NCBI GenBank assembly: GCA_030628925.1 | Contig: DAOVQA010000001.1 | Span: 1 to 28,542, forward strand | DNA length: 28,542 bases | Direction: 5' to 3' | DNA from: Candidatus Bathyarchaeota archaeon | Lineage (GTDB): Archaea; Thermoproteota; Bathyarchaeia; Bathyarchaeales; Bathycorpusculaceae | In this document: positions 10,802-12,806 of the stretch, piece after piece | How positions within the stretch are numbered: position 1 is the first letter of the stretch | Layout: every line of letters starts with the position of its first letter | Notes under the pieces: model-generated | The model's input: the letters and a program-made list of their open reading frames with translations, nothing else | What the model was told of the DNA's origin: nothing | Databases searched by the model: none | Position numbers and translations under genes: made by a program

Positions 10802-10989
10802 CCATCACCCTTCTTCTTCAAACTTTTTAAAATATCCCAGATTACAAGAACTATCTTCACAATAATACCAGCAACTACAAGGCACACCCCAGCCCAACCA
10901 ACCAATGCAACATAACAGTTAGCACCATAAAGAAACAAAACAAACCCCATAACTACTGAACACAGGCAAACCAAATCTTTCCACGACAC
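10798..10989 (-). CDS. Small two-TM membrane protein of unknown function
   Basis: Two hydrophobic segments flanking GAN.Y..LVGW and a basic C-terminus. Probable start is GTG 10989 (MSWKDLV...); the ORF track extends it to 11058. Confidence 0.6.
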   Translation of the reverse strand: MSWKDLVCLCSVVMGFVLFLYGANCYVALVGWAGVCLVVAGIIVKIVLVIWDILKSLKKKGDG

Positions 10990-11305
10990 ATTGCACACCC
11001 CAAGAGCTTCAATTTCAAACTTTTGAAGCTCTCGACATATATAGACTTTACTTATCAATCAACAGCTTCCTTCTACTCAACATAAAAGCCCACAATAAAA
11101 CATCTACAACACATCAGGACTGCTACAAAACCTTGCTCTCCGAAAAAAAAGTCCGACACATTCATTTCGAAACATCTGCAGCAAAACATCAAAAGACAGA
11201 ACACCCGACAACAAAACCAGAAAACTACAACAACAGAGGTAGGATAGCAAACATTGCCTACACAAACTAGCTAAAACGCCGTATTACCGCCGCGAACCCG
11301 ACACG

Positions 11306-11340
11306 TTTATATACAACCCTTCTCACACCCTTCTCAGGGT
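11306..11340 (+). promoter_or_regulatory. TATA box (TTTATATA) followed by a tandem 10-bp direct repeat and an overlapping inverted repeat
   Basis: TATA at 11306-11313; ACCCTTCTCA at 11316-11325 and 11327-11336; ACCCT-N4-AGGGT at 11327-11340. Confidence 0.65.
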
Positions 11341-11348
11341 AGAGTTGA

Positions 11349-12806
11349 ATGTCGGAACAGGATATAAAGAAGCCGGAAAACAAGGAGGAATTCACGAAAG
11401 TGTTAATGACCATCGCGAAAAAAGAGTCAGAAGCCCGCAGCTTCCTAAAGGGAAGGCCGACAAAACCTACAATTTCCGGCACAGCCAAATTGATGAACAT
11501 ACACAGAGATACTCTTTATACATGGCTTAAGGAGTTCAACGTCGACTTTAAAAGGATAGCTGACGTTGTATCGACAGCTCAAGCGATAGAAACTGTCGGA
11601 ACCCCTAGAAAGCATATCTATCTAATCGGAGAAGCTTTGATGGGACAGGGAAACGAGGTTGCCCACATAGACCTGTTAATAGGGGATAAAGAAGGCCCTG
11701 TCGGAGAAGCCTTCGCCACCGGCATATCCAACCTTTCCAAAGGACACACACCACTCCTAGCTGTTATACGACCAAACTTACCCCCTAAACCGCACACACT
11801 ACTTGTCCCAAAAGTCACCATAAAGAACACAGAAGACACAAACAAGATCTTTGGCCCAGCACAGGCAGCAGTCGCGAAGGCTGTTGCAGATTCTGTTGAA
11901 GAGGGACTAATTCCAAAAGACAAAGTAGATGATTGGGTCATAATATGCAGCGTTTTCATGCATCCAAAAGCAAAGGACTACCGAAAAATCTACCACTACA
12001 ATTATGGAGCAACCAAGCTAGCTCTGAAAAGAGCGTTAACAAACTATCCACCCTTAGAAAAGATCCTATATGACAAGGACAGAGCTAAACACCCGATAAT
12101 GGGATTCAAAGTGCCACGCCTATGGAGACCACCATACCTACAGATCGCACTCGACATACCAGATTTAAGACGAAACAAGAAAATCATAGCCTCACTTCCA
12201 AAGAGCGACAGAATAATACTTGAGATGGGTACACCCCTCATAAAAAGATATGGAACAAAAGTGATAAGCGAAATGAGAGAAGATGCCAGAGACTTATTCT
12301 TCGTTGCAGACCTAAAAACCCTAGATGTTGGTAAAGTTGAGGTTGACCTAGCCTACGAGGAAACAGCAGACGCAGTTGTTGCCGCCGGATTGGCACCCGT
12401 TGAAACATTAAATGCCTTTATCCACGAAGCAAAAAGACTTGGAATATACGCAGTGGTAGACATGTTAAATATGCAAGATCCAATCAGAAAACTCAGAATG
12501 CTTAAGGAATTCCCTGACATAGTGATTTTACACAGGGGAATAGATCAGGAAACCGGAAGAACCCTTGGCTTAGAACTCATTGAGGAACTACGGCAAGCCT
12601 TTAAGGACAGGAAATTCCTTATCGCCGTTGCAGGTGGAATAGTGCCGGAAACCGCAAAAGAAGCTCTACAAAAAGGAGCAGACATACTCATTGTTGGAAG
12701 GTTTGTGACACAATCTAGGGATGTTGAACGAGCTGTAAGAGAACTCCTTGAACTGACGCCTGAAATGCAAAAAGATATCGACTTATTCAGAGTACATGTA
12801 GAGTAA
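11349..12806 (+). CDS. fae-hps: Bifunctional formaldehyde-activating enzyme / 3-hexulose-6-phosphate synthase with an extra N-terminal HTH domain
   Basis: Fae motifs GEAL.G.GNEVAHIDLLIG and GPAQAAVAKAVADSV; Hps motifs LQIALD, E.GTPLIK, DLKTLD.G, HRGID and AVAGGI. Residues 1-89 form an extension containing TISGTAKLMNIHRDTLYTWLKEF. Confidence 0.93.
   Translation: MSEQDIKKPENKEEFTKVLMTIAKKESEARSFLKGRPTKPTISGTAKLMNIHRDTLYTWLKEFNVDFKRIADVVSTAQAIETVGTPRKHIYLIGEALMGQGNEVAHIDLLIGDKEGPVGEAFATGISNLSKGHTPLLAVIRPNLPPKPHTLLVPKVTIKNTEDTNKIFGPAQAAVAKAVADSVEEGLIPKDKVDDWVIICSVFMHPKAKDYRKIYHYNYGATKLALKRALTNYPPLEKILYDKDRAKHPIMGFKVPRLWRPPYLQIALDIPDLRRNKKIIASLPKSDRIILEMGTPLIKRYGTKVISEMREDARDLFFVADLKTLDVGKVEVDLAYEETADAVVAAGLAPVETLNAFIHEAKRLGIYAVVDMLNMQDPIRKLRMLKEFPDIVILHRGIDQETGRTLGLELIEELRQAFKDRKFLIAVAGGIVPETAKEALQKGADILIVGRFVTQSRDVERAVRELLELTPEMQKDIDLFRVHVE

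Follow-up and report, generated by a model that had tools for sequence, protein, structure and literature searches.

A conserved CCGACA array as the candidate autoregulatory operator of a DNA-binding Fae-Hps enzyme in Bathyarchaeia

Introduction

Does an archaeal enzyme of central metabolism that carries its own DNA-binding domain control its own synthesis and, if so, through which DNA element? This question is raised by a gene of a Candidatus Bathyarchaeota archaeon (assembly GCA_030628925.1, 1.21 Mb), which lies in the stretch of 28,542 nucleotides that we analysed (contig DAOVQA010000001.1, positions 1 to 28,542; hereafter the window). In this gene, a 485-codon frame with its ATG at 11349, the enzyme Fae-Hps and a DNA-binding domain are joined in one continuous reading frame. 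Fae-Hps makes pentoses via the reverse ribulose-monophosphate route, and the formaldehyde released is captured. Bathyarchaeia, which abound in sediments, have not been brought into culture and, to our knowledge, almost nothing is known about their gene regulation. In public sequencing runs, the organism is found in cold-seep and marine sediments; over the locus, these runs contain fragmentary contigs and one 229-nt metatranscriptome piece that lies inside the gene.

The original prediction, made from the DNA of the window, was that the HTH-Fae-Hps protein closes an autoregulatory loop by binding repeats between the TATA box and the start codon of its gene. Comparison with related genomes supports the general idea of an HTH autoregulatory loop; the named repeat is not the operator, and the comparison points instead to the hexamer CCGACA and its reverse complement TGTCGG.

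Results

Fae-Hps carries an N-terminal HTH extension

The promoter and gene comprise the following features:

11306-11313, plus strand: TATA box TTTATATA, unchanged among close relatives; TTATATA or TTAAATA across the order
11349-11624, plus strand: N-terminal DNA-binding extension (aa 1-92), assigned from profile matches, an AlphaFold2 model and likeness to the HTH of terminase small subunits
11625-12806, plus strand: enzyme core including the stop codon, i.e. Fae (aa 93-251; 239.5 bits) and Hps (aa 262-465; OMPdecase, 108.9 bits)

The Hps part matches the profile of the OMP-decarboxylase fold, and the protein scores 582.8 bits against the NCBIfam equivalog NF009833 (bifunctional Fae/Hps; cut-off 274), which aligns from model position 2 to 390 of 392 with residues 91-484. 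HTH-less Fae-Hps relatives start with M-Y/F-L, and the same place in the window gene is occupied by the Ile within HIYLIGE. A protein search of the genomes of relatives recovered full-length orthologues (residues 1-485) throughout the order of the window.

The 547-bp spacer between the upstream M32 carboxypeptidase gene and fae-hps (10802-11348) has a GC skew of -0.3 to -0.7 (C over G) and more A than T on the plus strand, and the gene order M32 then fae-hps is retained in distant relatives (L177, L178). Elsewhere in the same genome (C77:1777-3194), a second Fae domain lies behind a DapA/DHDPS-like aldolase in a gene cut by the contig end; relatives of this DapA-Fae paralogue have the same frame of ~500 aa.

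The AlphaFold2 model of the N-terminal domain predicts four helices, and the extension is laid out as a long helix (residues 12-34), a GRPTKPT arm, the HTH (42-49 and 53-62; IHRDTLYTWLKEF) and a last helix (67-82/83); the mean pLDDT is moderate (70-72), and the linker to Fae (81-88) is of low confidence. The residues H52, R53, D54, T55, L56 and W59 of the recognition helix are invariant across orthologues. Among Pfam families, HTH_29, HTH_28, HTH_23 and GP3_package gave weak matches at residues 40-64 of the extension, all below their cut-offs. A search of 1.84 billion representative proteins with a profile of the HTH gave 77 matches, and the nearest non-fragment relatives were GP3_package terminase small subunits and tandem HTH repeat proteins. 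The terminase small subunits are 50-58% identical over 24-40 residues around IHRDTLYTWLKEF, with the motif PTIxGxAxxLxIHRDTLYxWxKEF. Moreover, 41 of 48 family members match PF16677 at E <=0.01, below the cut-off and with the HTH part only. Membership of GP3_package (PF16677) was rejected at a score of 16.7 against a cut-off of 29.4 bits with only model positions 33-72 of 105 aligned. Foldseek comparison of the N-terminal model with the PDB gave no match at E <1, with mostly HTH DNA-binding proteins at the top of the list, and a profile search of PDB sequences gave a weak match to a phage protein (2ao9, E = 0.03). On these matches, the domain appears to resemble a terminase-type or homeodomain-like HTH in its working and to stand outside that Pfam family.

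The HTH domain is present in one copy per genome and was seen only as a fusion to Fae-Hps. Three matches that resembled stand-alone homologues were rejected: the match in G025 is cut by a contig end, and P0011 and P0022 come from assemblies in which neighbouring genes are split by frameshifts. Two metagenomic proteins, P0051 (589 aa) and P0053 (409 aa), consist of about seven tandem short HTH units (AEILYRENKLTVAEIAKKLGI..TLYRYLRY) and are distant relatives of the HTH.

The repeats in the TATA-ATG spacer are real and private to the lineage

The original prediction placed the operator of the fused HTH in the spacer that probably holds the transcription start, and the elements that it named are present as described:

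11316-11325 and 11327-11336, plus strand: direct repeat, two exact copies of ACCCTTCTCA with a period of 11 bp
11327-11340, plus strand: inverted repeat ACCCT-TCTC-AGGGT with 5+5 arms, of which the second ACCCTTCTCA copy is part

Both elements lie between TTTATATA, which starts at 11306, and the ATG at 11349. That two copies of ACCCTTCTCA, one helical turn apart, together with the ACCCT/AGGGT inverted repeat form an operator over the transcription start is a reading with several points in its favour. An element with this geometry between TATA box and ATG would suit archaeal repression; the repeat is perfect and has no second occurrence in the genome (a scan for the 21-mer with <=3 mismatches returned the copy in the window only); and one environmental population (run X5) shows no change from 11184 to 11536. 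Against it stands the comparison with orthologues. We aligned 28 promoters on their start codons and then the ten closest among them. The ACCCTTCTCA repeat and the inverted repeat are absent from 27 of the 27 other order-level promoters first examined, those of the same genus included, and from every orthologous promoter examined, although the recognition helix is invariant. Three same-genus genes, the proteins of which are 85-87% identical, have no ACCCTTCTCA, and the TATA-to-ATG spacer is conserved in length and not in sequence, even within the genus. Absence of the motif upstream of orthologues had been named in advance as the outcome that refutes the repeat as an operator; because the orthologues lack it, we count this reading of the repeat as refuted.

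Repeats of this kind are, moreover, common in the genome. Exact direct repeats of >=10 nt with a period of 10-21 occur 60 times in 1.21 Mb compared to 12-20 times in local shuffles, i.e. about 1.4 per 28.5-kb window, and the studied window has two. The 10-mer with one mismatch has four matches in the window, where 2.3 are expected and 18 of 100 shuffles do equally well. The RNA hairpin of the 5+5 inverted repeat has a folding energy of -5.6 to -9 kcal/mol, which is no improvement on shuffled sequence (z = 0.0 to -0.6). The AGGGT arm overlaps a purine-rich stretch at which orthologues have a GAGG/GGAG or AAGG-like patch, and this patch is a likely ribosome-binding site. In total, these comparisons indicate that the direct and inverted repeats are true, private to the lineage and ordinary. 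We give almost no credence to their being the operator of the fused HTH; by itself, the ACCCTTCTCA repeat is not worth pursuing, and the surrounding locus matters more.

CCGACA hexamers flank the core promoter and continue into the coding sequence

In the alignment of close relatives, the sole invariant blocks are CCGACA, TTTATATA and ATGTCGG, the last of which contains the reverse complement of the first. The window contains seven copies of the hexamer around fae-hps:

11153-11158, plus strand: distal CCGACA, 52 bp upstream of the copy at 11205
11205-11210, plus strand: distal CCGACA, 93 bp upstream of the proximal copy
11298-11303, plus strand: proximal CCGACA, candidate core operator half-site in the position of the TFB-recognition element (BRE); it ends 2 nt upstream of TTTATATA and 3 nt before the TTATATA core
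11350-11355, minus strand: inverted copy, TGTCGG in ATG-TCG-G (start codon, Ser2 and the initial G of codon 3); 52 bp separate it from the proximal copy
11457-11462, plus strand: intragenic CCGACA in the codons for Pro37-Thr38 of the GRPTKPT arm before the HTH, with codon bias; present in 57/98 loci
11594-11599, minus strand: intragenic TGTCGG at +245, weaker and partly conserved (41 + 10 loci at +230..+249)
11699-11704, minus strand: intragenic TGTCGG at +350 inside the Fae motif GPVGEAF, with flanks conserved as coding sequence

Over 98 non-identical Bathyarchaeia loci, which are related orthologues so that the counts overstate independence, the TATA-proximal CCGACA at -47..-56, 3 nt upstream of the TATA box, is present in 94 and TGTCGG over the start codon in 91. 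Among the same loci, CCGACA at +95..+120 is found in 57, 39 copies lie at -101..-110 and weaker classes lie near +215, +235, +290 and +350. The flanks of the hexamers carry little information in the orthologue alignment. Some of the intragenic copies may be kept by protein constraint and, notably, the one at +350 by the protein sequence alone. In many orthologues, the distal copy is 52-54 bp upstream of the proximal copy, unlike the 93 bp in the window, and same-genus relatives have a short palindrome, CCGACA-N6-7-TGTCGG, at the position corresponding to 11153. In the environmental population of run X5, the first base of the intragenic TGTCGG at 11594 is changed (T>C).

Codon choice indicates constraint on nucleotides

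Two of the hexamers lie in codons that permit synonymous change. Ser2 is encoded by TCG in 26 of 27 loci compared to 14% TCG among the other Ser codons of the same genes (P = 3e-21), and the Pro-Thr pair before the HTH is encoded by CCGACA in 25 of 38 compared to 8% expected from codon usage (P = 1e-18), with both binomial P values overstating significance in that relatives are not independent. Moreover, residue 3 varies (E/D/G/A), and its codon always begins with G. With identity down to 50-60% in the N-terminal regions, unchanged synonymous sites would not be expected in the absence of selection. As judged from codon choice, the constraint acts on nucleotides and not on amino acids, with the synonymous sites fixed.

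Constraint of this kind would also be expected if the hexamers acted in RNA or translation, with AUGUCGG pairing with the CCGACA at +108 and masking the start, or serving as a favoured initiation context. The start-codon and +108 copies are indeed complementary, both are transcribed and both are held at synonymous sites. However, the presumed transcript would contain neither the copy with the highest conservation (94/98) nor the distal ones, all of which precede the TATA box; the flanking bases add nothing to the 6 paired bp, with A or G after the +108 CCGACA opposite the A of AUG; and copies of the gene from which the HTH has been deleted (see below) retain Met-Ser and lose TCG. We regard an RNA or translation role as very improbable.

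The paired hexamer is essentially limited to fae-hps

CCGACA is under-represented genome-wide, with 273 sites on both strands (observed/expected 0.69). Nevertheless, seven copies lie within 552 bp at fae-hps where about 0.12 are expected, and nowhere else in the assembly are more than two copies clustered. The genome contains a single CCGACA-N1-4-TATA junction in 1.21 Mb. A role for CCGACA as a general or lineage-wide BRE was rejected on this single junction and on the under-representation of the hexamer. A regulon beyond fae-hps was looked for and not found: the same genome has no other cluster above two copies, the promoter of the pathway partner phi (C28) has no CCGACA and neither does the region near the start of the DapA-Fae paralogue on C77.

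Among 121 genomes of the order, the paired site CCGACA-N42-50-TGTCGG occurs in 24 of 25, 22 of 25 and 18 of 25 genomes of three fusion-carrying families. The match is usually single, is located at fae-hps and has the TATA box inside, against a background of about 0.8 per genome. In the family in which no Fae-Hps was found, the paired site occurs in 6 of 24 genomes, equal to the reversed-pattern control. One genus has a second conserved stretch, CCGACA-N48-TGTCGG (G360:C49:22746-22805, G190:C12:16714-16773, G229:C2:141764-141823 and G178:C89:5843-5902), which is coding-like and has no TATA box inside.

The promoter motif tracks the type of the fused DNA-binding domain

A class-wide search for Fae-Hps, together with sixty further upstream regions, gave three groups outside the order of the window. 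In the first, the protein has no extension and starts with M-Y/F-L-I-G-E. In the second (loci L052, L055, L069, L071, L081 and 16 others), it has an extension of ~55 residues, RAPGRIT-x-EQY-x-FLE...S-x-SEAVRAAI, which resembles a ribbon-helix-helix (RHH) domain; RHH_1 scores 18.8-19.1 bits on this extension, below the gathering cut-off of 20.5, and the strand-helix-helix pattern fits. In the third (L036 and L042, from G051 and G073), it has a different, resolvase-like HTH, NVSRDTIERRLK, on which HTH_7 reaches 26.6 bits compared to a cut-off of 23.8, i.e. above it in L042; a search for more members returned the same two genomes only.

Counted from -200 to +10, the motifs are distributed as follows:

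Window-type HTH (98 loci): CCGACA 2.96 per locus (96/98 with >=2), GTGACA 0.13, GCGGCA 0.07
RHH-fused (21 loci): CCGACA 0.05 per locus, GTGACA 1.81 (16/21 with >=2), GCGGCA 0.05
Second HTH type (2 loci): CCGACA 0 per locus, GTGACA 0, GCGGCA 2.5
No DNA-binding domain (35 loci): CCGACA 0.03 per locus, GTGACA 0.06, GCGGCA 0

The RHH-fused promoters have GTGAC-N8-GTCAC in place of CCGACA. With the second HTH type (L036 and L042), TTTGCGGCA occurs two to three times around the TATA box, and one site directly follows it.

Two Fae-Hps genes belong to the window's own family and have lost the HTH by a clean deletion (MSGTEVKKPENRASGPTYL...), i.e. L089 (G159:C5) and L088 (G202:C58). In L089, each of the two hexamers is degraded by one change, to CCGgCA before the TATA box and ATGTCaGG at the start; L088 has ATGTCTG and no recognisable CCGACA. 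In G159, in which the sole copy found is the HTH-deleted one, CCGACA-N42-50-TGTCGG scores 0. G202 additionally has a copy with an intact HTH, and this copy has the CCGACA motif. The motif is also missing from a divergent second copy with IQLD in place of IHRD. Met-Ser is kept in all three of these genes, i.e. in the two HTH-deleted copies and in the IQLD copy.

Could a separate, unlinked transcription factor, and not the fused HTH, bind the array as a real operator? Short hexamers can suit many HTH proteins. However, the type of motif switches with the fused domain and decays on deletion of the HTH, so that the gain, exchange and loss of such a factor would all have had to follow those of the fused domain; moreover, the paired site is essentially limited to one promoter per genome, as expected for a self-regulating protein. 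We consider a separate factor improbable. Taken as a pattern across sequences, the covariation of domain and motif would be hard to explain unless the fused domain reads the motif.

Hexamer spacing is consistent with an oligomeric reader

The spacing of adjacent CCGACA copies peaks at 52-54 bp, and 37 loci have this same distance of 52-54 bp between the distal and the proximal copy in non-coding DNA. Distances between pairs of CCGACA copies are phased at 10.5 bp (R = 0.58 compared to 0.10 at 10.0 bp). In the RHH group, the proximal half-sites are at -33 and -20 from the TATA box (TTAAATA), the palindrome ends 8 nt upstream of this box and the distal site is at -85, 52 bp away. Since the 52-bp spacing is common to unrelated DNA-binding domains, it points to the shared enzyme core as the ruler. 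PDB entries contain five chains for Fae and two or four for Hps, and by this analogy the enzyme core is probably oligomeric. From the shared spacing together with these chain counts, we infer that the protein forms an oligomer with several HTHs tethered to it. In the PDB, residues 129-286 of 8ub7 chain B ('Avd', 290 aa) match the Fae domain (E = 1.8e-42; five chains per entry on average); this chain could be an engineered fusion.

Discussion

We consider it likely that the ACCCTTCTCA repeats are incidental and that the CCGACA array is a real cis-element read by the fused HTH, most likely in negative autoregulation. The comparison of orthologues and of domain types supports autoregulation through this array. 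Beyond the comparative pattern, we infer physical binding, wrapping of DNA around an oligomer, the sign of regulation and the existence of any effector, and the proposed mechanism is as follows. The N-terminal HTH of the 485-aa HTH-Fae-Hps protein would recognise the CCGACA hexamer. Because the enzyme core is probably oligomeric, several HTHs would be available on one particle and could engage hexamers about five helical turns apart, so that the promoter DNA would bend around the enzyme. With the BRE position and the early transcribed region occupied, TFB and RNA polymerase would be excluded. Repression might be tuned by a ligand, possibly hexulose-6-phosphate, ribulose-5-phosphate, formaldehyde or tetrahydromethanopterin.

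We favour negative autoregulation because a protein on these sites would keep TFB and RNA polymerase off the promoter; in archaea, a site at the BRE or shortly past the expected transcription start is in a repressor position. The site in the BRE position could in principle recruit TFB rather than exclude it. More broadly, the fused HTH might bind the array and activate the promoter, or mainly tether the enzyme to DNA without a regulatory effect. Such a role would be in keeping with the copies at -105 and beyond and with the RHH-type palindrome, which resemble archaeal activator positions. By contrast, the two best-conserved copies lie at the BRE position and at the start codon in the early transcribed region, and the second HTH type has a site directly after the TATA box. 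We regard activation or tethering as unlikely and negative autoregulation as the better reading of the array.

A more general proposal, which we put forward tentatively as a possibility, is that Fae-Hps of Bathyarchaeia is a metabolite-sensing trigger enzyme that has gained a DNA-binding domain at least two and probably three separate times, i.e. a terminase-type HTH, a ribbon-helix-helix and a resolvase-type HTH. Each gain would have come with a matching operator in the enzyme's own promoter, the ~52-bp spacing would stem from the oligomeric core wrapping the promoter and part of the operator would reside in synonymous positions of the codons for the DNA-binding domain.

At this locus, an enzyme of archaeal central metabolism apparently controls its own synthesis via the DNA-binding domain fused to it, and the case is clean and open to testing. 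The pattern behind this reading is unusually clear, with three domain types, three motifs and none where the domain is absent. Moreover, the protein and its candidate operator form a defined pair that can be tested in vitro, for which culture of the organism is not needed. Finally, operator copies at synonymous codon positions call for caution in codon-based analyses of selection.

Full-text literature searches found no paper on a DNA-binding Fae-Hps, and its likenesses lie with several known systems. Archaeal operators may overlap BRE/TATA or the transcription start, and the fae-hps array resembles them in that its proximal CCGACA is in the position of the BRE, the site of TFB recognition, and its inverted copy follows shortly after the expected start. 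However, in fae-hps, half-sites 52 bp apart bracket the core promoter in place of a compact palindrome, and further copies lie in the coding sequence. Terminase small subunits, the best non-fragment relatives of the HTH, form ring oligomers, the HTHs of which bind repeated sites with the DNA wrapped around them; this ring and wrapping resemble the mechanism proposed here. They differ in that Fae-Hps has neither the terminase oligomerisation core nor a viral context.

Among bacterial trigger enzymes, PutA (ribbon-helix-helix and proline dehydrogenase), BirA (winged HTH and biotin ligase) and NadR combine catalysis and DNA binding in one chain and regulate themselves or their pathway, with ligand control demonstrated. 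The N-terminal ribbon-helix-helix of PutA parallels the RHH-Fae-Hps of other Bathyarchaeia orders. The enzymes of PutA, BirA and NadR are unrelated to Fae-Hps, and the ligand control demonstrated for them is no more than a possibility for Fae-Hps.

The closest described archaeal precedent is RbkR, for which passages of the published report describe a riboflavin kinase of archaea that has a winged HTH joined to its N-terminus, with operators found by comparative genomics at the promoters that RbkR controls (PMC5397151). As portrayed in those passages, RbkR shares with HTH-Fae-Hps the combination of an archaeal metabolic enzyme and an N-terminal DNA-binding domain in one polypeptide, and differs from it in the enzyme, the type of HTH and the motif (PMC5397151). 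The Fae-Hps array, moreover, runs into the coding sequence in steps of ~52 bp. Relative to the literature searched, the DNA-binding Fae-Hps is a new variant of the known theme of enzyme-regulator fusion.
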